A DNA stretch of 8,429 bases from the IMG/VR virus record IMGVR_UViG_3300029590_000173, positions 1 to 8,429 of that record; one strand, written 5' to 3'. The translations under genes and the position numbers were made by a program. This DNA comes from a virus. Its lineage: Duplodnaviria; Heunggongvirae; Uroviricota; Caudoviricetes. The notes below the pieces were generated by a model. It saw only the letters and a program-made list of their open reading frames with translations, made no database searches and was not told the DNA's origin. Shown here one piece after another: positions 1 through 8,429 of this stretch (the stretch's first letter is position 1; each line of letters opens with the position of its first letter).

Positions 1-17
1 AAGTTGGCAGCATCACC
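1..17 (-). mobile_element. Terminal 17 bp of a second IS1 copy (left inverted repeat, reverse-complemented); the body of that copy lies upstream of the window
   Basis: Bases 1-17 (AAGTTGGCAGCATCACC) are the exact reverse complement of bases 2473-2489 (GGTGATGCTGCCAACTT), the left end of the complete IS1 in this window. Only 17 bp are visible, so full versus solo end cannot be decided. Confidence 0.7.
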
Positions 18-288
18 CGAAATCACTTCATCAAGCACGTGTGTTGATGAGTACTTCAGGATCGGGTCGACGATCAAAACTGACCGGGTAATAGAACTGG
101 ATGGGGTAACTTACCCATATGTTACAATTGACGTTTCTTCTAAGTCGCATCCGTTCTATACAGGCAAACTGAGAACTGTTGCTTCAGAAGGTAATGTTGC
201 ACGCTTTACCCAGCGTTTTGGGCGTTTTGGGCGTTTTGGGCGTTTTGGGCGTTTTGGGCGTTTTGTTGATGCGAAAAAAGGCGGCTGA
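18..288 (+). CDS. rpmE2: 50S ribosomal protein L31 type B (RpmE2/YkgM-like), 3' fragment with a C-terminal (GRF)n expansion; 5' end abuts the IS1 end
   Basis: The translation ...[62 protein letters not shown]...KKGG matches my recollection of the non-zinc L31 paralog YkgM over about 65 residues. The stop is TGA at 286-288. The frame stays open back through the IS1 end to base 1, so the true start is not in the window. No rpmJ2/ykgO-like gene follows. Confidence 0.75.
214..265 (+). repeat. Perfect tandem repeat of the 9-bp unit CGTTTTGGG, 5 full copies plus a 7-bp partial copy, in frame within the L31B coding sequence
   Basis: Counted directly: units at 214-222, 223-231, 232-240, 241-249 and 250-258, then CGTTTTG at 259-265. 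The repeat encodes RFG/GRF repeats. Confidence 0.95.
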
Positions 289-589
289 TTTCGCCGCAAA
301 GGTGCGTTTGACAATTTTAAAACGGACCGGACAGAGAGAGCCTGCACCTGAATATACTGAGGTAGCCCGTCCCTCCGGGGCGTGCAGATGATCCCGTCAC
401 CAGAAGATTGCGGACCTCTCTGAAAACCAGTACATTACGCGCGGGTGCCTTTCGGCTGACGGCTGGAAGGATTACCTGAAGGCCGGATGTGGAAAGGCCC
501 CGGAAAACATCTCTGTTTAGCCGAGGCCCTAATCTACATACCTTTAGCAAGTAGAAGGTTAGCGCCTCTTTGAAAAAGGAGCAAGCGCT

Positions 590-730
590 ATGCCGCAAAA
601 AACGATCATCGTGAGCATTTTATGCTTAACCATGTTGTTGACCGTCTGGATGATACATCGTTCACCATGTGAATTCAGACTTAACATCATGTGGTCAGAA
701 TTTGCGGCGTTCTTGCAGTGTAAACCGTAA
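590..730 (+). CDS. Small hydrophobic protein (46 aa), Hok/Gef-family-like type I toxin candidate
   Basis: The ORF ATG 590 to TAA 728-730 was not in the supplied track because it is below the length cut-off. Translation: MPQKTIIVSILCLTMLLTVWMIHRSPCEFRLNIMWSEFAAFLQCKP. AGGAG at 577-581 sits 8 nt before the ATG. It has one N-terminal transmembrane segment followed by R-S-P-C-E-F-R and S-E-F-A-A-F, which resemble the Hok motifs R-K-x-L-C-E-I-R and E-V-A-A-F as I recall them. A GC-rich hairpin and an intrinsic terminator follow. Confidence 0.5.
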   Translation: MPQKTIIVSILCLTMLLTVWMIHRSPCEFRLNIMWSEFAAFLQCKP

Positions 731-824
731 GAAACCGCAGCGGGGGTGAAAGCCCCCGCTATCCGGTTGCCGAAGGTTCGGTCGAAAGCCGCACCCGTGC
801 ATGCAAGTGACAAAGAAAAAACAA

Positions 825-858
825 AGCCCGCAGCGTAAAAACTGCGGGCTTTTTTATT
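825..858 (+). terminator. Rho-independent terminator downstream of the hok-like ORF
   Basis: Stem AGCCCGCAG (825-833), loop CGTAAAAA, stem CTGCGGGCT (842-850), followed by TTTTT-ATT. Confidence 0.65.
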
Positions 859-896
859 CACATACCGAAGGTGTGGTAACTGCCTGGGTTCAGACC

Positions 897-921
897 AAAA
901 AAAGCCCCATAAAATGGGGCT
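897..921 (-). terminator. Rho-independent terminator for leftward (minus-strand) transcription, convergent with the plus-strand terminator
   Basis: On the minus strand: AGCCCCA, loop TTTTA, TGGGGCT, then TTTTTTT (the plus strand shows an A-run at 897-903). It lies about 300 nt downstream of the minus-strand operon end at 1217. Confidence 0.55.
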
Positions 922-1067
922 GAAGATTCTGTAAGGAATTTCACAGCAATGAGATTCTAGTCTCTTCCAATGATATATGAGTCTTCAGCCTGAATCAATG
1001 GGGCATGACTGTGAATCCACCGACGATCAAAACTTGCACAATGCCTGAAGTTGAGTTAGAAAAGTAC

Positions 1068-1128
1068 CGGGCGCGATATCCGGTTTATTTTTTGTTGCTG
1101 TGTTTTGCCTCGTGCCGGATATCGCGTC
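1068..1128. repeat. Imperfect 15-bp inverted repeat (GGGCGCGATATCCGG ... CCGGATATCGCGTCC) separated by a 31-nt T-rich spacer
   Basis: Arms at 1068-1082 and 1114-1128 are reverse complements at 14 of 15 positions. Each arm contains GATATC. Function unknown; possible large hairpin or protein-binding site at the GC/AT transition. Confidence 0.5.
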
Positions 1129-1216
1129 CACCGTCTTTCTGATGATTCTTATGAAATCGTACTTTATTGATTTACTGCCATCCTGGTTTGTCTTTTTATG
1201 TTCATTATTGCGACAG

Positions 1217-1612
1217 TCATTTCCTGTTTCTGGTGATGTTTTGATAAAAGTGAAAGAATAAAACGATCATTGCAGAAGGTATTGCTAAAACCATACATAT
1301 CATTATATAAACAAGATGAAAATGATATATACCATAAGACCAGAAAAAAGGTTTTTTCCAGAATGATATGGATGTGTATTTTAGTGTAATTGTTTTTGTC
1401 AGGTATATTGAACAAGGAAGAGCCAGGCCACTGAGTATCAGAAATAAGTCAACTTTTATCGATGCTTCTGTTGGTGTGTCATATATAAGATGCAATATGG
1501 ATATTATAATGGGGCACATTCCCCACAGGATATTTTTGAAATAGAATTTCCGGTTCATATGTTTATGCTCTTTGGTTTTATCCCGGGAATTGGCGCTTTG
1601 TTTTTTATTCAT
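1217..1612 (-). CDS. Hypothetical multi-pass membrane protein (131 aa, about 3 predicted transmembrane helices), low-GC, second gene of a two-gene operon
   Basis: Track ORF. The start overlaps the stop of the upstream ORF by 8 nt (ATG at 1612-1610 versus stop at 1607-1605). Hydrophobic stretches include ILWGMCPIIISILHLIY, VDLFLILSGLALPCSIYL and YGIYHFHLVYIMICMVLAIPSAMIVLFF. An alternative start at the internal Met (codon 18) is possible. No family recognised. Confidence 0.55.
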   Translation of the reverse strand: MNKKQSANSRDKTKEHKHMNRKFYFKNILWGMCPIIISILHLIYDTPTEASIKVDLFLILSGLALPCSIYLTKTITLKYTSISFWKKPFFWSYGIYHFHLVYIMICMVLAIPSAMIVLFFHFYQNITRNRK

Positions 1613-2276
1613 GAACGTTTTCGTTGTTTAATAACCATGGGGTATTATGATTATCCTTTATTTTTGATATGTAATTGTCAATAGTGGATTTCGTTTCATT
1701 ATTGTGGTTATAGTAATCATGAAGAGTGCAAAACACATCATCTTTTATTGTGGCGATTAATGGGGCTTGTGTGAGGGTAAAATATAAAGAACGATTACTT
1801 AGTGTCCTGAAATAAATTTTTTCGCCAATGACCAGATCGGTGTTCATTATATTGTAGCCTATTTCAAATATATTGTTTGATGGCATGTGTAATACATATG
1901 TGGGGTATTTGTTGTGTTTTTTCATTAAATAATAAATAAAATCAGATACAGGCATCTGTTTTAGTTTTTTTTGCATCTTCCTTATGTGTTGTGACATTAA
2001 TATCATTTTCGAGAGAATGCATAAGAGACTAAACAAGAGATTAAATACTATGTTCAGTACTATCAGAGTAACAAACAGGCCAATGCTCCTTAGCGCTGAA
2101 AATATATTGTCATTGTAAATATACTGGAATGTATATCCGGCTGATAAAAATGCCAATATATATAACACTATGTCTGTTTTATTTCGCTTTTTTATTTTGT
2201 AGGTTATTGCTGATTTTAAGAATAAGATGGCAATAAGAGCAGTGATAACCCAGAAAAATATAACGGAAACTTCCAT
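1605..2276 (-). CDS. Hypothetical membrane protein (223 aa): three N-terminal transmembrane helices plus a ~130-aa Asn/Lys/Tyr-rich soluble C-terminal domain; low-GC; first gene of the operon
   Basis: Track ORF. ATG at 2276-2274 with a weak AAGG upstream. Transmembrane segments around residues 3-20, 36-54 and 65-88. GC content is about 28%, against roughly 50% in the flanking DNA. No family recognised. Confidence 0.6.
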   Translation of the reverse strand: MEVSVIFFWVITALIAILFLKSAITYKIKKRNKTDIVLYILAFLSAGYTFQYIYNDNIFSALRSIGLFVTLIVLNIVFNLLFSLLCILSKMILMSQHIRKMQKKLKQMPVSDFIYYLMKKHNKYPTYVLHMPSNNIFEIGYNIMNTDLVIGEKIYFRTLSNRSLYFTLTQAPLIATIKDDVFCTLHDYYNHNNETKSTIDNYISKIKDNHNTPWLLNNENVHE

Positions 2277-2326
2277 AATTATACCTTTATCGTGTTTTCA
2301 GGGAGGTAATTTATCATTGTGCTGAT

Positions 2327-2346
2327 ATGCATGTAAATACATGCAT
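2327..2346. promoter_or_regulatory. Perfect 20-bp palindrome ATGCATGTA-AA-TACATGCAT, 51-70 bp upstream of the 223-aa membrane-protein gene; candidate operator in its promoter region
   Basis: The 9-bp arms are exact reverse complements with a 2-bp spacer. It lies in the 196-bp AT-rich gap between the ORF start (2276) and the IS1 left end (2473). Confidence 0.45.
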
Positions 2347-2527
2347 TATCTGTTTCTTATATTCTTTTTATGAAGTTACTGATTAATTTATATTAAAACA
2401 ACACATTCATAATGAAATCAACATGTTCATATGGTTGACGGCAGATTTCTCTTTTTGTTAACCTGCATCTGCGGTGATGCTGCCAACTTACTGATTTAGT
2501 GTATGATGGTGTTTTTGAGGTGCTCCA

Positions 2528-2803
2528 GTGGCTTCTGTTTCTATCAGCTGTCCCTCCTGTTCAGCTACTGACGGGGTGGTGCGTAACGGCAAAAGCACCG
2601 CCGGACATCAGCGCTATCTCTGCTCTCACTGCCGTAAAACATGGCAACTGCAGTTCACTTACACCGCTTCTCAACCCGGTACGCACCAGAAAATCATTGA
2701 TATGGCCATGAATGGCGTTGGATGCCGGGCAACCGCCCGCATTATGGGCGTTGGCCTCAACACGATTTTCCGCCATTTAAAAAACTCAGGCCGCAGTCGG
2801 TAA
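2528..2803 (+). CDS. insA: IS1 InsA protein (transposition inhibitor and N-terminal part of the InsAB' transposase)
   Basis: The 91-aa translation [43 protein letters not shown]... is the canonical InsA with its zinc-finger Cys motifs. Confidence 0.95.
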
Positions 2804-3225
2804 CCTCGCGCATACAGCCGGGCAGTGACGTCATCGTCTGCGCGGAAATGGACGAACAGTGGGGATACGTCGGGGCTAAATCGCGCCAGCGCTGGCTGTT
2901 TTACGCGTATGACAGGCTCCGGAAGACGGTTGTTGCGCACGTATTCGGTGAACGCACTATGGCGACGCTGGGGCGTCTTATGAGCCTGCTGTCACCCTTT
3001 GACGTGGTGATATGGATGACGGATGGCTGGCCGCTGTATGAATCCCGCCTGAAGGGAAAGCTGCACGTAATCAGCAAGCGATATACGCAGCGAATTGAGC
3101 GGCATAACCTGAATCTGAGGCAGCACCTGGCACGGCTGGGACGGAAGTCGCTGTCGTTCTCAAAATCGGTGGAGCTGCATGACAAAGTCATCGGGCATTA
3201 TCTGAACATAAAACACTATCAATAA
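2722..3225 (+). CDS. insB: IS1 InsB reading frame (expressed as the InsAB' transposase by a -1 frameshift at the A6C site)
   Basis: The track ORF translation ...[44 protein letters not shown]... is canonical IS1 InsB. The frameshift site lies at 2779-2785. Confidence 0.9.
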
Positions 3226-3240
3226 GTTGGAGTCATTACC

Positions 3241-3586
3241 TGAAGCGTTAATGCATGATGCAACAGAAGCGTATTGCCAGGACATCCCTGCTCCACTGAA
3301 ACGCCTTCTTCCTGACTATAAACGGATGGAAGAAAAAATAGACGCCGTAATCCGTGAGAAATACGGGTTACCTCCTGTTATGAGCACGCCAGTGAAATAT
3401 GCCGATCTCATTATGCTGGCAACCGAACGTCGCGATCTCGGGCTTGATGATGGCTCTTTCTGGCCTGTACTGGAAGGTATCCCGGCGACAGAGATGTTCA
3501 AAGTTATTCCACTGTCACCAGGCCATGCCTACGGGATGTTTATGGAACGTTTTAACGAGTTATCGGAGTTACGCAAATGCGCATGA
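3241..3586 (+). pseudogene. 3' remnant of an HD-domain phosphohydrolase-like prophage gene, decapitated by the IS1 insertion
   Basis: The reading frame runs uninterrupted from inside the IS1 right end, and the apparent start at 3227 is IS1 sequence. The remaining translation begins PEALMHDATEAYCQDIPAPLKRLLPDY..., which carries an HD-type metal-binding motif (H-D-x-x-E-x-x-x-x-D-I-P). The N-terminal half is missing. Confidence 0.5.
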
Positions 3587-3939
3587 ATGTTTTCGAAATG
3601 GAAGGGTTTCTTCGCGGGAAATGTGTACCACGAGATCTGAAAGTGAATGAAACAAATGCTGAGTACCTGGTACGTAAATTCGATGCGCTTGAAGCTAAAT
3701 GTGCGGCACTGGAAAACAAAATAATACCAGTGTCAGCTGAACTGCCGCCAGCAAATGAAAGTGTTCTGTTATTTGATGCTAACGGAGAAGGCTGGCTAAT
3801 TGGCTGGCGTTCTCTCTGGTACACCTGGGGACAAAAAGAAACCGGAGAATGGCTGTGGACATTTCAGGTCGGGGACCTTGAAAACGTCAATATCACTCAC
3901 TGGGCAGTAATGCCGAAAGCACCGAAGAATAAAAAATGA
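3577..3939 (+). CDS. Prophage protein with a C-terminal Trp-rich domain resembling DUF551
   Basis: Track ORF with GGAG 8 nt upstream; it overlaps the previous stop. The C-terminus GEGWLIGWRSLWYTWGQKETGEWLWTFQ...ITHWAVMPKAPK fits the Trp-rich phage domain I recall as DUF551 (ending THWMPLP-like). Confidence 0.5.
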   Translation: MRMNVFEMEGFLRGKCVPRDLKVNETNAEYLVRKFDALEAKCAALENKIIPVSAELPPANESVLLFDANGEGWLIGWRSLWYTWGQKETGEWLWTFQVGDLENVNITHWAVMPKAPKNKK

Positions 3940-4139
3940 GCGTGATAAAAACTCATACAGGAATTGTTATCACCCGAGACGGTCCGCAGGTAAAAAAACT
4001 GCACCAGACAAAGCGGATGTGGGTCGTCGGAAAAAACGAGTTTTACCACAAAGAAACCGGACGCCGCCACTTTGCAGAAAATACTCGCCGCCGACTGCTG
4101 ATCGATACCATCAAGCCTATCGAGGTGAAGCATGTTTAA
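3936..4139 (+). CDS. Hypothetical prophage protein (67 aa)
   Basis: Track ORF. Its ATG overlaps the upstream stop (ATGA), typical of translationally coupled phage operons. No family recognised. Confidence 0.4.
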   Translation: MSVIKTHTGIVITRDGPQVKKLHQTKRMWVVGKNEFYHKETGRRHFAENTRRRLLIDTIKPIEVKHV

Positions 4140-4371
4140 ACAGAACGAAAAATCTATCGCTCAAATTGCTGAGTATATCCCGCGTGCGTGCCGGGATATG
4201 CAGTTGCAGGAAGCCAAAGCACGCCTGGAGAAAAAAATTGCGCTCTATATCGATGACGGCTGTGATGCCGCCGTTCTTAACGCGGCGTTCGCGCCAGCTC
4301 TTAACAGTCATACGCGAAAGTCTTTTTTTTCGTGCATCGCAGCGCAGATCCGTAAAGGAGGCAACCAGTGA
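4132..4371 (+). CDS. Hypothetical prophage protein (79 aa)
   Basis: Track ORF. Its start overlaps the upstream stop (ATGTTTAA) and its stop overlaps the next gene's GTG start. No family recognised. Confidence 0.4.
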   Translation: MFKQNEKSIAQIAEYIPRACRDMQLQEAKARLEKKIALYIDDGCDAAVLNAAFAPALNSHTRKSFFSCIAAQIRKGGNQ

Positions 4372-4967
4372 GCAACATTAACTATCAGGTACTGCGTGAA
4401 AAGGCAGAGAAAGCAACTAAAGGAAGCTACATCGTAGGGCATACATCTGTTAACCAACACGGCAATTTAACAGGAGTTTTTGTTTGTCAAAAATGGAAAG
4501 GAGAACCCGGTGGCGTAATTGCAGAATGTCACGTTAACTGCCTGGTTGAAACAGATGCTCAGGCTTATGCAAACGCTGAATTCATAGCAGAGGCTAACCC
4601 GGCTACCGTGCTGGCACTGCTGGATGAACAGGAAAGAAACCAGCAATACATCAAACGCCGCGACCAGGAGAACGAGGATATTGCGCTAACGGTAGGGAAG
4701 CTGCGCGTTGAGCTTGAGGAGACAAAATCAAAACTCAACGAGCAGCGCGAGTATTACGAGGGAGTTATCTCTGATGGGTGCAAGCGTATTGCTGAACTGG
4801 AAGCGCGGGAAGTTCAATTACCGACTCGCTACGACCTTCGATATGGACACCCGATAAATGCAGATGAGCGACAAGTCATGATACCTAAAGAAAATGGCAG
4901 TTGGCTTTACCTGATTGACCTAGAACACGCATTACGCGTCGCTGACATTCGCATCAAAGGAGAGTGA
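4368..4967 (+). CDS. Ead/Ea22-like prophage accessory protein (199 aa)
   Basis: GTG start with a strong AAGGAGG 6 nt upstream. The N-terminus MSNINYQVLREKAEKATKG... and the central coiled-coil region match my recollection of lambdoid Ead/Ea22-like proteins encoded between int/xis and the recombination genes. Confidence 0.55.
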   Translation: MSNINYQVLREKAEKATKGSYIVGHTSVNQHGNLTGVFVCQKWKGEPGGVIAECHVNCLVETDAQAYANAEFIAEANPATVLALLDEQERNQQYIKRRDQENEDIALTVGKLRVELEETKSKLNEQREYYEGVISDGCKRIAELEAREVQLPTRYDLRYGHPINADERQVMIPKENGSWLYLIDLEHALRVADIRIKGE

Positions 4968-4968
4968 T

Positions 4969-5484
4969 ATGGCGTTAACACACCACGAACTCTGTCAGAT
5001 TGCGTACAAGTTCCTTAAGCGCAACGGGTTCAAGGTTTGCTTTCATGACCGCTTTGTTGCTGTAACCAGTACCGGAGAACAGCCAGATGCTATGGGATTC
5101 AGAAATTCAGCATCATGCCTGATAGAGGCGAAGTGTTCTCGTGCTGACTTGTTGGCAGATAGAAAAAAGCGTTTCCGTAAAAATCCCTCACTTGGCATGG
5201 GCGACTGGCGATTCTTTATTAGTGAGCCGGAAATTATTTCAGTTGAGGATTTACCTCCCGGCTGGGGATTACTTCACGTTGTTAACGGAAGAGTACGGAA
5301 AGTACATGGATGGCCCAGGGGTAATTGCTGTTGGGGTAATCCTGACGATAAGCCATTTACTGGGAATAAGCAGGTTGAATGCGATTACATGTTATCTGCA
5401 TTAAGGCGCATGGAGTTGAGAGGGCACCTTAATGAAATATATGACGGTGTGATTGTTAATAAGAAAGAAGGAAACGCGGCATGA
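4969..5484 (+). CDS. Hypothetical prophage protein (171 aa); possible PD-(D/E)xK nuclease fold
   Basis: AGGAG 6 nt upstream; starts 1 nt after the Ea22-like stop. The sequence contains ...GEQPDAMGF...CLIEAKCSRADL..., which is compatible with a PD-x(n)-E-x-K catalytic motif. This is a motif-level inference only. Confidence 0.35.
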   Translation: MALTHHELCQIAYKFLKRNGFKVCFHDRFVAVTSTGEQPDAMGFRNSASCLIEAKCSRADLLADRKKRFRKNPSLGMGDWRFFISEPEIISVEDLPPGWGLLHVVNGRVRKVHGWPRGNCCWGNPDDKPFTGNKQVECDYMLSALRRMELRGHLNEIYDGVIVNKKEGNAA

Positions 5485-6239
5485 TCACTATTACCAAAGG
5501 GCGACTGCTGACAATCAAGCAGTGGCGCGAAACATACGGACCGGGTAGCAACGTTGTACTGCCAGCAGAAGAAGCGGAAGAACTGGCACGAATTGCTCTG
5601 GTATCGCTGGAAGCAGAGCCGGTGGCAAAGATTATAGCTCATTACCCATTAGGAGTTGACGTAGGCAAACAAAAGTTCGTACAGGCCATTGGAGAGCTTC
5701 CTGACTTTGGCGGATATCTATTTGCCGCCCCGCCAGCGCCGGTAGTGCCGGAAGAAGCAACTCCGGAAAACGTAGAAATGCTCTCTGGCTATGTTTCCAC
5801 GTACAAATTAACCGATAGCGAGCGCGATATTGCTGCCGAAATATGGAACGCCTGCCGCACCGCCATGCTTCAGTCCGGAAACTTTCGGGAAAGCAAGAAT
5901 TCGTCAACCAATAATTTTCGGGAAATCCCGGAAGCGTCAACCAGCTCTCCGGTAACTCCGGCTCTTCTGCCTGGTGGTTTCACCATTGAGGAGGCGAAGG
6001 AATTACATGAAGACCTGGTACGCAGCCACATAAGCAAGGCCTTAAGTGGCGAAAAGATGAAAAAGAAAGATCGCGATGCTGATTTGCGCTGGATTCATGG
6101 CGTTATAGTTCAGGCAGCGTGGTTTGTAAAAGCATCACTGGAGCAGAATGCACTATCGGGCAACTCTCCGGTAACTCCGGATGGTTGGATAAGCTGTAGT
6201 GAGCGAATGCCGGACGACAGGCAGGAGGTGAATCAATGA
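5481..6239 (+). CDS. Hypothetical prophage protein (252 aa) with internal short repeats and a C-terminus that looks like the start of a DUF551-type domain
   Basis: ATG overlaps the upstream stop (ATGA) with GAAGGA upstream. It contains exact 17-bp direct repeats at 5945-5961 and 6164-6180 (encoding SPVTP) and ends ...SPVTPDGWISCSERMPDD before the stop at 6237-6239. Confidence 0.5.
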   Translation: MITITKGRLLTIKQWRETYGPGSNVVLPAEEAEELARIALVSLEAEPVAKIIAHYPLGVDVGKQKFVQAIGELPDFGGYLFAAPPAPVVPEEATPENVEMLSGYVSTYKLTDSERDIAAEIWNACRTAMLQSGNFRESKNSSTNNFREIPEASTSSPVTPALLPGGFTIEEAKELHEDLVRSHISKALSGEKMKKKDRDADLRWIHGVIVQAAWFVKASLEQNALSGNSPVTPDGWISCSERMPDDRQEVNQ

Positions 6240-6319
6240 GCTGGCCTGATGCAATCGTAACTCTGGGGGTGGTATTCGCAGCAGCGTTTGTTGTGTTCTC
6301 GATTTGTCGATGGGGATAA
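6236..6319 (+). CDS. Small single-transmembrane peptide (27 aa, MSWPDAIVTLGVVFAAAFVVFSICRWG); candidate host-targeting small membrane peptide
   Basis: Not in the track because it is short. AGGAGG at 6222-6227 sits 8 nt before ATG 6236. The ATG overlaps the upstream stop (ATGA), and the stop TAA at 6317-6319 lies 4 nt before the next ATG (6324). Confidence 0.4.
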   Translation: MSWPDAIVTLGVVFAAAFVVFSICRWG

Positions 6320-6323
6320 CCAC

Positions 6324-6566
6324 ATGTTCGCTTTGATTCAACGCGGTCAGATATACACGGACAGAGCCGGATACCCCGTGGTGATTACTCGCATCACTGA
6401 GCACTCAGTGTTCTTTCGACGGGTGGACGGACGATCCGGGCGGGTACGCATTGGTGAGTTAAACTGCCTGTTCGAACATATTGACCACCAGGAGTACCGC
6501 AAAATTCTCGCGGACACTGAGCAGGAAAAGCACCTGAAAAAATTACGAGCCATAAAAAGGAAGTAA
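6324..6566 (+). CDS. Hypothetical prophage protein (81 aa from ATG 6324; the track's TTG start at 6288 is less likely)
   Basis: Track ORF 6288..6566. The ATG at 6324 follows the small-peptide stop by 4 nt. Translation: MFALIQRGQIYTDRAGYPVVITRITEHSVFFRRVDGRSGRVRIGELNCLFEHIDHQEYRK... No family assigned with confidence. Confidence 0.45.
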   Translation: MFALIQRGQIYTDRAGYPVVITRITEHSVFFRRVDGRSGRVRIGELNCLFEHIDHQEYRKILADTEQEKHLKKLRAIKRK

Positions 6567-6569
6567 AGA

Positions 6570-6704
6570 ATGAATAAAGCATTTGAACGATGGGTCCACC
6601 AGCGTTACGGCAATCACTATGACCTGACGCGAGATGTTGATGGCTTCTACTGTCGTGAAGTTGTGAAGCGAATGTTTGAAATGTGGTGCCACTGCCGTGG
6701 ATGA
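6570..6704 (+). CDS. Small Cys/His-containing protein (44 aa, MNKAFERWVHQRYGNHYDLTRDVDGFYCREVVKRMFEMWCHCRG)
   Basis: Not in the track because it is short. AAGGAAG lies about 7 nt upstream, and the ATG is 4 nt after the previous stop. C-x(13)-C-H-C could be a metal-binding knuckle. Weak call. Confidence 0.3.
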   Translation: MNKAFERWVHQRYGNHYDLTRDVDGFYCREVVKRMFEMWCHCRG

Positions 6705-6722
6705 AAGTTTTATGAGGTTGGC

Positions 6723-6977
6723 ATGCAGACAATCATCTATCAGATAACCCCCAGCAAATGGTGTACGGAGAGAGTCCTTATTGCATCAACAGGGCTAAAG
6801 CCCGGCACCATCGAGCGGGCCAGAAGAAAGTCATGGATGCAGGGAAAAGAATACCGCCATTACGCTGTAGAAGGTGATCCTGGGCATTACAGTGAATGCC
6901 TGTACAACATCGAAGAAATTATGCGATGGATCGAAAACCAGAAACAACCAGGTGCCAAAAATGCAAGTTCCGGTTAA
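6723..6977 (+). CDS. xis: Excisionase-like (Xis) protein, 84 aa
   Basis: It sits immediately upstream of int and is co-oriented with it, the canonical xis position. The N-terminus MQTIIYQITPSKWCTERV... resembles the putative-excisionase family of enterobacterial prophages as I recall it. Confidence 0.5.
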   Translation: MQTIIYQITPSKWCTERVLIASTGLKPGTIERARRKSWMQGKEYRHYAVEGDPGHYSECLYNIEEIMRWIENQKQPGAKNASSG

Positions 6978-7010
6978 CCTGTTAATGCTCCTGGACGTCT
7001 GGGAGGTTTA

Positions 7011-8315
7011 ATGAGTAACGTATCATACCCGACAGGCGTTGAAAACCATGGAGGATCACTCCGTATATGGTTTCACTATAATGGCAAACGTGTCAGAGAA
7101 AACCTCGGTGTTCCTGACACCGCCAAAAACCGGAAGATCGCAGGTGAACTTCGCACTTCCGTTTGTTTTGCAATCAGAATGGGGAGTTTCGACTACGCTA
7201 CACAGTTCCCTAATTCCCCTAACCTGAAACACTTTGGTCTGGGAAAAAGAGAGATAACCGTTAAGGCACTTTCGGAAAAATGGTTGGACCTTAAGAAAAT
7301 TGAGATTTGTGCGAATGCACTTAATCGTTACCAGTCAGTAATTAAAAACATGTTGCCTATGTTGGGTGAGAAAAAACTGGTTTCATCCATAACAAAAGAG
7401 GATTTACTTTTCGCAAGGAGAGATTTGTTGACCGGTTACCAAAAGCTTTCTAATGGAAAGATTTCTTCCATAAAAGGGCGCTCAGTGGTCACAGTAAACT
7501 ACTATATGACAACCATAGCTGGAATGTTTCAATTTGCAACAGATAATGGTTATACCTCAGGAAACCCATTTAACGGTCTGGCCCCCTTAAAAAAGTCCAA
7601 GGTAAAACCAGATCCTCTCACCCGTGACGAATTTATTCGTTTTATTGAGGCTTGCCGTCATCAACAAACAAAAAACCTGTGGATTCTCGCTGTATACACG
7701 GGTATTCGTCACGGGGAGCTGGTATCGCTGGCATGGGAAGATATAGATCTTAAAGCAAGGACTATAACCATCCGTAGGAATTATACAAAACTTGGCGAAT
7801 TCACTCCACCAAAAACCGATGCTGGCACCGGAAGGACAATTCATCTGGTTCAACCAGCTATTGATGCTCTTAAAAGTCAGGCGGAAATGACCATGCTTGG
7901 AAAGCAACATTCTGTAGAGGTAAAGCAGAGGGAATATGGGAGAAGNNNNNNNNNNNNNNNNNNNNNNNNNNNNNNNNNCACTTTTGTTTTTAGTCCTCAG
8001 GTAATAAAACAGCGGCAGTTTTCCGGACCGCACTATAAGGTTGACTCCATCAGGGAGTCATGGACAAGTATCTTAAAACGCGCAGGTCTGAGACACAGAA
8101 AATCGTACCAATCCAGGCATACTTATGCATGCTGGTCACTTGCCGCTGGAGCTAATCCTAGTTTTATCGCAAGCCAGATGGGCCACACAAACGCACAAAT
8201 GGTATTCAATGTTTACGGAGCATGGATGAAAGACAACAATCACGAACAGATAGAACTCCTTAACAAAAGACTATCTGAAAGTGTCCCATGTATGCCCCAT
8301 AAGAAAGCTGGGTAA
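7011..8315 (+). CDS. int: Phage integrase, tyrosine site-specific recombinase (lambda Int family); the reading frame spans a 33-N gap
   Basis: GGGAGG Shine-Dalgarno before ATG 7011. The C-terminal catalytic region carries ...LAVYTGIRHGELVSLAWEDIDL... (Arg box) and ...HTYACWSLAAGANPSFIASQMGHTNAQMVFNVYGAWM... (H-x-x-R ... Y motifs). Ns at 7946-7978 fall inside the gene. Confidence 0.9.
   Translation: MSNVSYPTGVENHGGSLRIWFHYNGKRVRENLGVPDTAKNRKIAGELRTSVCFAIRMGSFDYATQFPNSPNLKHFGLGKREITVKALSEKWLDLKKIEICANALNRYQSVIKNMLPMLGEKKLVSSITKEDLLFARRDLLTGYQKLSNGKISSIKGRSVVTVNYYMTTIAGMFQFATDNGYTSGNPFNGLAPLKKSKVKPDPLTRDEFIRFIEACRHQQTKNLWILAVYTGIRHGELVSLAWEDIDLKARTITIRRNYTKLGEFTPPKTDAGTGRTIHLVQPAIDALKSQAEMTMLGKQHSVEVKQREYGRXXXXXXXXXXXXTFVFSPQVIKQRQFSGPHYKVDSIRESWTSILKRAGLRHRKSYQSRHTYACWSLAAGANPSFIASQMGHTNAQMVFNVYGAWMKDNNHEQIELLNKRLSESVPCMPHKKAG
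7946..7978. other. Run of 33 N (assembly gap or masked bases) inside the integrase gene
   Basis: Seen directly. Because 33 is a multiple of 3 the frame appears preserved, but the true length and content are unknown. Confidence 0.99.
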
Positions 8316-8360
8316 AATAAAAACTTGCAAAATCAATTAGTTTACCCTTAATCCCTGTCA
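8316..8360. other. Prophage-chromosome junction (attL-type) region between the integrase stop and the resumption of mlrA-like sequence
   Basis: Position immediately 3' of int, and the point where the downstream frame begins to read as MlrA (about 8354). The exact core cannot be defined without the other junction. Confidence 0.35.
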
Positions 8361-8429
8361 CGTTACGCGCGTGGCAGAGGCGTTACGGATTGCTGAAACC
8401 GCAACGGACAGACGGCGGTCATCGGCTGT
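8354..8429 (+). pseudogene. mlrA: Fragment of the MerR-family curli regulator gene mlrA (yehV), helix-turn-helix region; its 5' end is replaced by prophage sequence and it runs off the window
   Basis: The in-frame translation [25 protein letters not shown] matches the MlrA N-terminal HTH region as I remember it ([42 protein letters not shown]...). The upstream in-frame codons ([11 protein letters not shown]) do not match and contain no start codon back to the stop at 8318-8320. Confidence 0.6.

Follow-up and report, generated by a model that had tools for sequence, protein, structure and literature searches.

A hok/sok-family locus without a mok reading frame and a candidate refolding switch in its mRNA

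The DNA analysed here, referred to as the window, comprises positions 1 to 8,429 of the IMG/VR virus record IMGVR_UViG_3300029590_000173 (8,429 nucleotides, nt) and carries a hok/sok locus close to its beginning. The hok/sok system is the paradigm for toxin-antitoxin systems of type I, and according to its textbook logic Sok blocks mok, and mok drives hok. The locus in the window and its relatives keep every hok/sok RNA element except the mok reading frame. We regard the hok/sok identity of the locus as practically certain and the absence of mok from the window and its clade as very probable. Sequence comparison demonstrates that the toxin belongs to the Hok family, that the RNA elements are present and conserved, and that mok is missing throughout the clade. 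With modest confidence, we read positions 408-858 as one complete type I toxin-antitoxin unit of the hok/sok family that lacks mok and would be gated by refolding of its mRNA.

Related loci were collected by look-ups and scans, which yielded 111 unique units of 450 nt belonging to two sister types with peptides starting with MPQK or MSQK. Subsets of these units were used for the leader open reading frame (ORF) scan (n=110), the scan for near-cognate starts (n=108), the Sok promoter (n=104), the energies of the open form (n=99) and the accessibility of the hok Shine-Dalgarno sequence (SD) in three states (n=98), and RNA structure was assessed on an alignment of 30 related sequences. A total of 56 unique HokC/D-like, R1-like and HokE units, together with R1, hokB and hokC, served as classical controls. 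The R1 hok/sok sequence, confirmed against plasmids at 100 % identity, was used as a ruler, with the mok ATG at nt 116 (-58 relative to hok), the hok ATG at 174, the end of the GC hairpin at 359 and the end of fbi at 396.

Toxin gene, mRNA elements and antisense RNA

The hok coding sequence at 590-730 on the plus strand encodes a peptide of 46 amino acids (aa), MPQKTIIVSILCLTMLLTVWMIHRSPCEFRLNIMWSEFAAFLQCKP. An AAGGAG at 576-581 lies 8 nt upstream of its ATG, and its own frame is shut upstream by TAG at 560-562. The resemblance to the Hok family proposed in the initial annotation passed a check with profile hidden Markov models. The peptide scores 27.8 bits with Pfam PF01848 (HOK_GEF), whose gathering score is 22 (E 1.9e-6; the match spans profile positions 7-42 of 42), and, over its full length, 69.2 bits with PHROG 251 'MokW-like host killing' (E 4.6e-19). 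It also shows the traits of Hok proteins, namely a length of about 50 aa, a basic N-terminus, a single hydrophobic helix with a conserved Cys/Thr, a C-E motif and an E-x-A-A-F/L tail. In an alignment with HokA, HokB, HokC, HokE, R1 Hok and other family members, no variation is seen at C12, T14 and E28, and L16 and E37 are almost invariant. The best NCBIfam match is HokA, for which orthology could be ruled out by a score of 37.9 bits, far under the equivalog cut-off of 89 (NF007290), an identity of 46 % and a different genomic site. Variable sites among the related units are distributed over codon positions 1, 2 and 3 as 27/15/34, and pN/pS lies at 0.2-0.67 between diverged hok variants. This third-position-biased variation, together with the pN/pS values, indicates that the ORF is under coding selection, and all 46 codons are intact in 104 units. 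Judged from these comparisons, the ORF is a Hok/Gef family toxin gene and not an orthologue of HokA. PADLOC gave no anti-phage defence annotation for Hok or its two neighbours.

The toxin gene as such is ordinary, already annotated and catalogued, and calling it a toxin is not new. The initial annotation described the ORF as unannotated, which does not hold, since in the E. coli chromosome NZ_CP075852.1 this ORF carries the PGAP annotation 'Hok/Gef family protein' (WP_001135720.1). Window positions 300-900 are 99.8 % identical to 13 complete E. coli chromosomes including this one, and about 590 of 5,426 complete E. coli genomes contain a relative spanning at least 80 % of this segment. In a recent catalogue of Hok proteins (bioRxiv 10.1101/2025.08.07.668861; 2026), the MPQK peptide group corresponds to cluster 82 and its MSQK sister to cluster 72, and members representing both groups were cloned to be assayed for toxicity. 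The window peptide is a member of the MPQKTIIV... group, with the MSQKSL... group as its sister, and is likewise covered by PHROG 251. The cloned representative 82_1289, which is about 80 % identical to the window peptide, is not among the three constructs reported as non-toxic (bioRxiv 10.1101/2025.08.07.668861). That study deals with Hok coding sequences only and explicitly sets aside Mok, Sok and the mRNA elements (bioRxiv 10.1101/2025.08.07.668861).

A candidate hok promoter was read by eye at 408-436 on the plus strand (-35 TTGCGG at 408-413, a spacer of 17 nt, -10 TACATT at 431-436). Its -35 matches the consensus at only three of six positions, and a consensus scan did not flag it. In related units, a -10 of the form TACATT, TAGATT or TAAATT lies 6-7 nt upstream of GGGTGCC, and the mRNA is predicted to begin at about 443 with GGGUGCC, which in the window comes seven bases past the -10. 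This 5' end contains the tac element (GGGUGCCUUUCGGCUGA, 443-459), which can pair either with the fold-back inhibition element fbi (UCGGUCGAAAGCCGCACCC, 778-796), recognized from the fold, the R1 comparison and the alignment, or with ucb (AAAGGCCCC, 493-501). In the predicted folds, ucb in turn pairs with the GAGG box in a closed form or with tac in an open form. The hairpin sequestering the GAGG box, located by folds and R1 coordinates, spans 496-528, and the box itself (523-526) is the counterpart of the R1 mok SD, with no start codon after it. Further downstream, the dcb or anti-SD segment (GGUUAGCGCCUC, 557-568) would pair with the hok SD in the closed form or with GAGGCCCUAA in the open form. 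Locally, the anti-SD/SD hairpin at 562-588 pairs CUCUUU with the AAGGAG, leaves a GAAA loop at 572-575 and reaches -17.4 kcal/mol. The hok start region itself (AUGCCGCAAA, 590-599) has a long-range partner in UUUGCGGCGU at 702-711, and this helix is 99 % paired across the 30 aligned sequences.

The GC-rich hairpin and the intrinsic terminator noted in the initial annotation were both found by a terminator scan, which detected five terminator-like sites where 0.9 were expected. The hairpin follows the hok stop codon at 738-761 and is 100 % paired with four covarying pairs in the 30 relatives. By analogy with R1 (equivalent nt 359-361), it is likely the 3' end of a processed, active mRNA. The terminator occupies 823-858, with the stem at 823-852 and a T run to 858. 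On the minus strand, this stem can be read as a terminator too, and with a second terminator at 921->903 on the same strand it insulates hok from the downstream genes, which are convergent.

Folding of the RNA 443-858 gave a minimum free energy (MFE) of -177.8 kcal/mol (z = -9.7 against shuffles) with 443-459 clamped to 778-796, so that the fold-back structure asked about in the initial annotation is predicted here as a tac/fbi clamp. The 6-bp core of this clamp is paired in 29-30 of the 30 relatives, and one related unit (L231) combines a tac of GGGCGCC with a matching fbi of GGCGCCC, which is a compensatory change. Within the alignment, 82 % of the cells are paired in the closed structure against 34-45 % in slid controls, and its covariation score is 0.141 against 0.04-0.06. 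The Sok promoter, the tac and fbi elements, the hairpins and the SD have been kept in many genomic contexts and despite a peptide divergence of about 50 %. On this sequence evidence, 443-858 is a complete hok mRNA unit with its elements in R1 order.

On the minus strand, a Sok-type promoter-like motif can be recognized at 556-584 (-35 TTGCTC at 584->579, a spacer of 17 nt, -10 TAACCT at 561->556). It sits at the position homologous to R1 and is directed toward the GAGG hairpin, as is the R1 promoter TTGCGC-17-TATCCT. The -10 TAACCT and a TTGNNN -35 at a spacing of 17-18 nt are each present in 104/104 units. The expectation in the initial annotation that any antisense RNA would be arranged differently is contradicted by this promoter. 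Part of its broader claim of altered control stands, because the translational-coupling step does differ, but the cis antisense RNA and the fold-back are arranged classically as far as sequence can tell. Starting from this promoter, a Sok-like RNA of about 60 nt (488-549, minus strand) is predicted, with a 5' tail of about 19 nt and a stem-loop at 530->495, and its fold reaches -28.8 kcal/mol (z -3.2). Rfam RF01794 'sok' matches 443-600 on the plus strand with 47.7 bits (E 1.9e-8), which is under the gathering score of 59. The match is full-length (157 nt), lies on the sense strand and ends at the hok AUG; the model thus seems to represent the leader of hok and not the antisense RNA as such. 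Of the whole unit, the segment 529-546, from the GAGG box to CAAGT (alignment columns about 97-115), shows the lowest conservation and is rich in indels. The predicted 5' tail of Sok, which would be single-stranded, is complementary to this segment, which probably sets the specificity of Sok/hok pairing among the many paralogous units of one genome.

Absence of the mok reading frame

In R1, the mok ATG at -58 opens the leader frame, whereas the window has ATC (532-534) at this position. The frame itself is closed by TGA at 571-573, that is at -19. This stop and the others listed in the initial annotation, TAG at 552-554, TGA at 612-614 and TGA at 670-672, are all present. Its conclusion that there is no mok reading frame was confirmed and could be extended to the whole clade: an ATG at -55..-60 was found in 0/110 clade units. 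An ORF starting with ATG, GTG or TTG reaches the hok SD in only 38 of the 110, and the starts of these ORFs are heterogeneous. The same scan recovered a leader ORF extending to the hok SD in 56/56 classical units as well as in R1, hokB and hokC, and these control ORFs nearly always start with ATG at -56..-60. Since the scan finds the leader ORF in all controls, the absence of mok is real and clade-specific and not an artefact of the method.

The stronger statement in the initial annotation, that no overlapping frame can exist, goes slightly too far, although no such frame is conserved in the relatives. A residual ATG ORF of 28 codons remains in the mok frame at 487-573 on the plus strand. It is the only canonical leader ORF in the window, and its TGA stop at 571-573 falls into the SD-hairpin loop and leaves 17 nt up to the hok ATG. 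This ORF is probably not a gene. In addition, a TTG ORF of 14 codons at 570-614 overlaps the hok start, lacks an SD and is not conserved in the relatives. Two candidates for a displaced mok start were tried and rejected. For the ORFs that begin at the conserved ATG corresponding to 487, the ends in the relatives are scattered between -100 and +134 and over all three frames. Near-cognate starts after the GAGG box are inconsistent as well, with 33 of 108 units having none within 4-12 nt and the others running to stops at -51, -46, -38, -30 or elsewhere.

These observations bear on an explanation in which Hok still depends on a translated but unconventional leader, either the 28-codon ATG ORF or a 13-codon ORF starting with AUC at 532. 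Both would end at the TGA in the SD-hairpin loop, where a terminating ribosome could melt the anti-SD and hand over to the hok SD. The AUC lies 5 nt past the GAGG box and shares frame 2 and position -58 with the R1 mok AUG, and in R1 translation of mok is needed only up to the hok SD (PMC9841398). A very stable SD hairpin would also favour a helicase-like opener. However, the scattered ends of the ORFs from the conserved ATG and the inconsistent near-cognate starts in the relatives speak against such a leader. The ATG at 487 lies upstream of the structured GAGG hairpin and has only GAAGG 4 nt away, and AUC is a very poor translation initiator. Continued coupling through a cryptic leader is therefore considered improbable.

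A search in a collection of papers found no description of hok loci without mok, although an earlier description is possible. The regulatory architecture common to the two abundant clusters looks like an undescribed variant of hok/sok. At these loci, neither annotation pipelines nor catalogues should presuppose a mok gene.

A proposed refolding switch and its alternatives

If hok is not opened by a translating ribosome, another route to its SD would be a rearrangement of the mRNA itself. In the sequence of events proposed here, a weak promoter would give rise to a stable hok mRNA of about 355-415 nt, whose 5' end (tac) would be clamped to its 3' end (fbi). In this closed form, ucb would hold the GAGG box, the anti-SD (CCUCUU) would hold the hok SD, and the AUG would be paired to codons 38-41. 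Slow trimming of the 3' end back to the GC hairpin would remove fbi, after which tac could pair with ucb and the freed GAGGCCCUAA with GGUUAGCGCCUC. The latter pairing would draw the anti-SD off the hok SD and permit direct ribosome initiation on hok. A constitutive but unstable Sok-like RNA (about 549->488) would pair with the GAGG region and so return the anti-SD to the SD. It would probably also trigger RNase III cleavage, and Hok would be kept off for as long as the element is present. Hok, with 46 aa and one transmembrane helix, would then damage the inner membrane, and the former mok SD would survive only as an RNA switch element.

Several predictions are consistent with this scheme. RNAalifold on the 30 relatives picks tac/ucb over tac/fbi and prefers the R1 'open' pairings, tac with AAAGGCCCC and GAGGCCCUAAC with GGUUAGCGCCUC. 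The second of these pairings here takes in the anti-SD of the hok hairpin. For the dcb segment, RNAalifold joins alignment columns 89-101 with 125-136, which 28 of the 30 sequences can form. Because the MFE of the trimmed RNA alone stays non-open in both the window and R1, the open form was assessed by constrained folds and ensemble probabilities. In the 3'-trimmed RNA of 99 units it lies 0-6.6 kcal/mol above the MFE (median 0; window 3.4, R1 2.0), so that the closed and the open set of pairs can both form at nearly equal energy. In local folds, the hok SD is unpaired with a probability of 0.002 in the window, and the median is 0.007 for the clade and 0.5 for classical loci with mok. This probability is higher in the trimmed than in the full-length RNA in 98/98 units, by at least five-fold in 62 of them, and blocking the Sok target lowers it again in 97/98. 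Among MPQK-type units, the medians are 0.013 for the full-length, 0.30 for the trimmed and 0.014 for the Sok-blocked RNA, whereas the R1 hok SD is unresponsive at 0.253 in all three states.

There are several points that weigh against this reading. The window's own copy is predicted to stay closed, with probabilities of an unpaired SD of 0.002, 0.003 and 0.002 in the three states, and in none of the states is the hok AUG released from a long-range helix of 10 bp. Hardly any variation occurs in the GAGG/dcb and tac/ucb pairs, and covariation therefore speaks neither for nor against the open form. Furthermore, the 98 folded units are interrelated, so that their counts are not independent tests, and nearest-neighbour folding misses some known states of R1. 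Some copies in the clade show clear signs of decay, their peptides being truncated or extended by loss of the stop codon. We infer the transcript ends, the refolding, direct initiation on hok, the expression of Sok and the toxicity of this exact peptide from sequence.

The closed state of the window copy also fits an explanation in which the locus is a silenced relic, whose hok became untranslatable when the mok start was lost and which, like the inactive hok loci of K-12, now slowly decays as a hitch-hiker on mobile DNA. The accessibility of its hok SD is about 0.002 in every predicted state, the clade contains truncated (25-37 aa) and stop-loss (77 aa) variants, and the flanks in the window form a mosaic interrupted by IS1. 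Inactive chromosomal hok loci are on record (PMC1635323; PMC2887945). Against this explanation stand the 104 intact ORFs and the signs of coding selection described above, as well as the retention of the Sok promoter, the tac and fbi elements, the hairpins and the SD across strongly diverged peptides and the compensatory changes in the GC hairpin and in tac/fbi. A relic is accordingly rated as having a low probability. As an observation on the clade, Hok copies without a stop codon read through to 58-77 aa, while others are annotated as fragments of 25-37 aa; such copies were seen in P0005/L015-L018, P0001, P0003 and P0008-P0025.

A further possibility is that control acts on decay only. The processed mRNA would then allow a low level of direct hok translation, and Sok would merely trigger cleavage by RNase III and decay without affecting the SD structure. 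Because the pairing site of Sok is at least 27 nt upstream of the hok SD, direct occlusion of the SD by Sok is not possible, and cleavage of hok/Sok duplexes by RNase III is established in R1 (PMC4147584). In R1, however, the main mechanism is the block of translation and not RNase III (PMC4147584). The very tight anti-SD hairpin also argues against constitutive initiation, and the shift in predicted SD accessibility upon blocking the Sok target is at odds with a purely decay-based mechanism. Little weight is therefore given to it.

Refolding in a mok-less unit remains our preferred reading of 408-858, while its individual parts differ in strength. The specific mechanism, in which the GAGG segment acts as an anti-anti-SD, is suggested by the folding models and is put forward tentatively, at somewhat less than even confidence. 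Doubtful, though worth stating, is the generalization that the prophage- and ICE-borne (integrative conjugative element) MPQK and MSQK clusters form a mok-independent branch of hok/sok, in which the ancestral mok SD now serves as an anti-anti-SD and Sok represses by refolding. If the units are active, they would represent a second way of gating Hok translation within the same RNA scaffold. They would also provide a natural test of which hok mRNA elements serve structure and which serve coupling. Should the mok-independent branch be true, translational coupling would be dispensable in a textbook type I system.

Genomic setting and comparison with known systems

Only positions 18-2472 of the window belong to an element derived from an ICE; next come a copy of IS1 and the left end of a lambdoid prophage. 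The remainder (2473-8429) contains the IS1 transposase at 2722-3225, the prophage end with yfdR-like, DUF551 and Ead/Ea22 genes, and an integrase at 7011-8315. The whole window is contiguous in no complete E. coli genome of the collection. In NZ_CP075852.1, hok is located where an integrative conjugative element ends, flanked by a paralog of type-B ribosomal protein L31 on one side and hypothetical genes on the other, and a relative at 87 % has the same L31-hok pairing. Downstream of hok, two overlapping AT-rich ORFs of 131 and 223 aa are located on the minus strand at 1217-2276. They had no match in Pfam or PADLOC and only weak PHROG matches (membrane protein, E 7e-4), and the 223-aa ORF is hypothetical in RefSeq.

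The L31 paralog (ORF 4-288) and the hok unit travel together in several genomic contexts, among them the ICE, a traT/hsd island and metagenome contigs, with pairs at 4-730 in the window, 7702-8431 in L001, 3726-4431 in L002 and 136-934 in L015/L016. Next to the toxin module, mobile DNA thus carries a zinc-independent L31 of type B. The 3' end of the paralog gene contains a perfect 9-bp tandem repeat (GCGTTTTGG, 5.9 copies, window 213-265) that translates into a C-terminal (GRF)n tail. The lengths of the gene, 288 nt in L001 and 264 nt in L002, would be compatible with a varying number of repeats. Three direct-tandem hok units about 472 bp apart occur in L012 and L013 (hok starts at 229, 701 and 1175), two of them MPQK and one MSQK, each with its own leader, Sok promoter and 3' elements. 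A scan of 596 Gb of genome contigs with the 15-mer GAAGGTTAGCGCCTC yielded 120 loci, of which one had a related hok and 119 were chance matches. The single case (L044; NZ_JPLE01000227.1, 857 bp) is an E. coli-type MSQK hok unit with a full leader in an assembly of Xanthomonas pisi, most likely an enterobacterial contamination.

Compared with hok/sok (parB) of R1 and with flm, srnB and pnd, the unit has the same kind of toxin and the same tac-fbi pairing of the mRNA ends. As in R1, a ucb/GAGG hairpin is predicted for which a GAGG/dcb stem would be the alternative, the hok AUG is paired to the distal coding sequence, and a GC hairpin after the stop is followed by fbi and the terminator. The Sok promoter lies on the opposite strand between the GAGG box and the hok SD, with the same spacing. 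The AGGAG in front of hok, which the initial annotation had singled out, is present but does not set the locus apart from classical ones, since R1 hok is also preceded by AAGGAG. The differences from R1 concern mok, whose ATG at -58 opens a frame of 70 codons across hok in R1 but is replaced by ATC in a frame shut at -19 in the window. The window Hok has 46 aa compared with 52 aa in R1. Finally, the hok SD is far less accessible here than in R1 and classical loci (probability of being unpaired 0.002-0.007 against about 0.25-0.5), whereas the AUG is less locked (about 0.2 against 0.001 in R1).

The K-12 loci hokB/mokB/sokB and hokC/mokC/sokC share the family and the layout. Their mok architecture already varies, with mokC in frame with hokC and mokB out of frame. 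Nevertheless, hokB and hokC keep an ATG at -57/-58 with an ORF through the hok start, which no unit of the clade does. The peptide resembles HokA in its MPQK... N-terminus, the W-M motif, the CE motif and the ...AAFL..C.. tail, but with the 46 % identity noted above and at a different site, as hokA is located by cspA. Type I systems without a coupled leader ORF are known in aapA/IsoA of Helicobacter pylori and tisB/istR-1 of E. coli, which offer a functional analogy only. In both, the toxin SD is sequestered by mRNA structure, processing leads to a translatable form, and the antisense RNA acts away from the toxin SD (PMC9841398; PMC4147584). Their toxins and RNAs are unrelated to those described here, whereas the switch proposed for the mok-less units would re-use tac, ucb, the GAGG box and dcb of the hok/sok scaffold.

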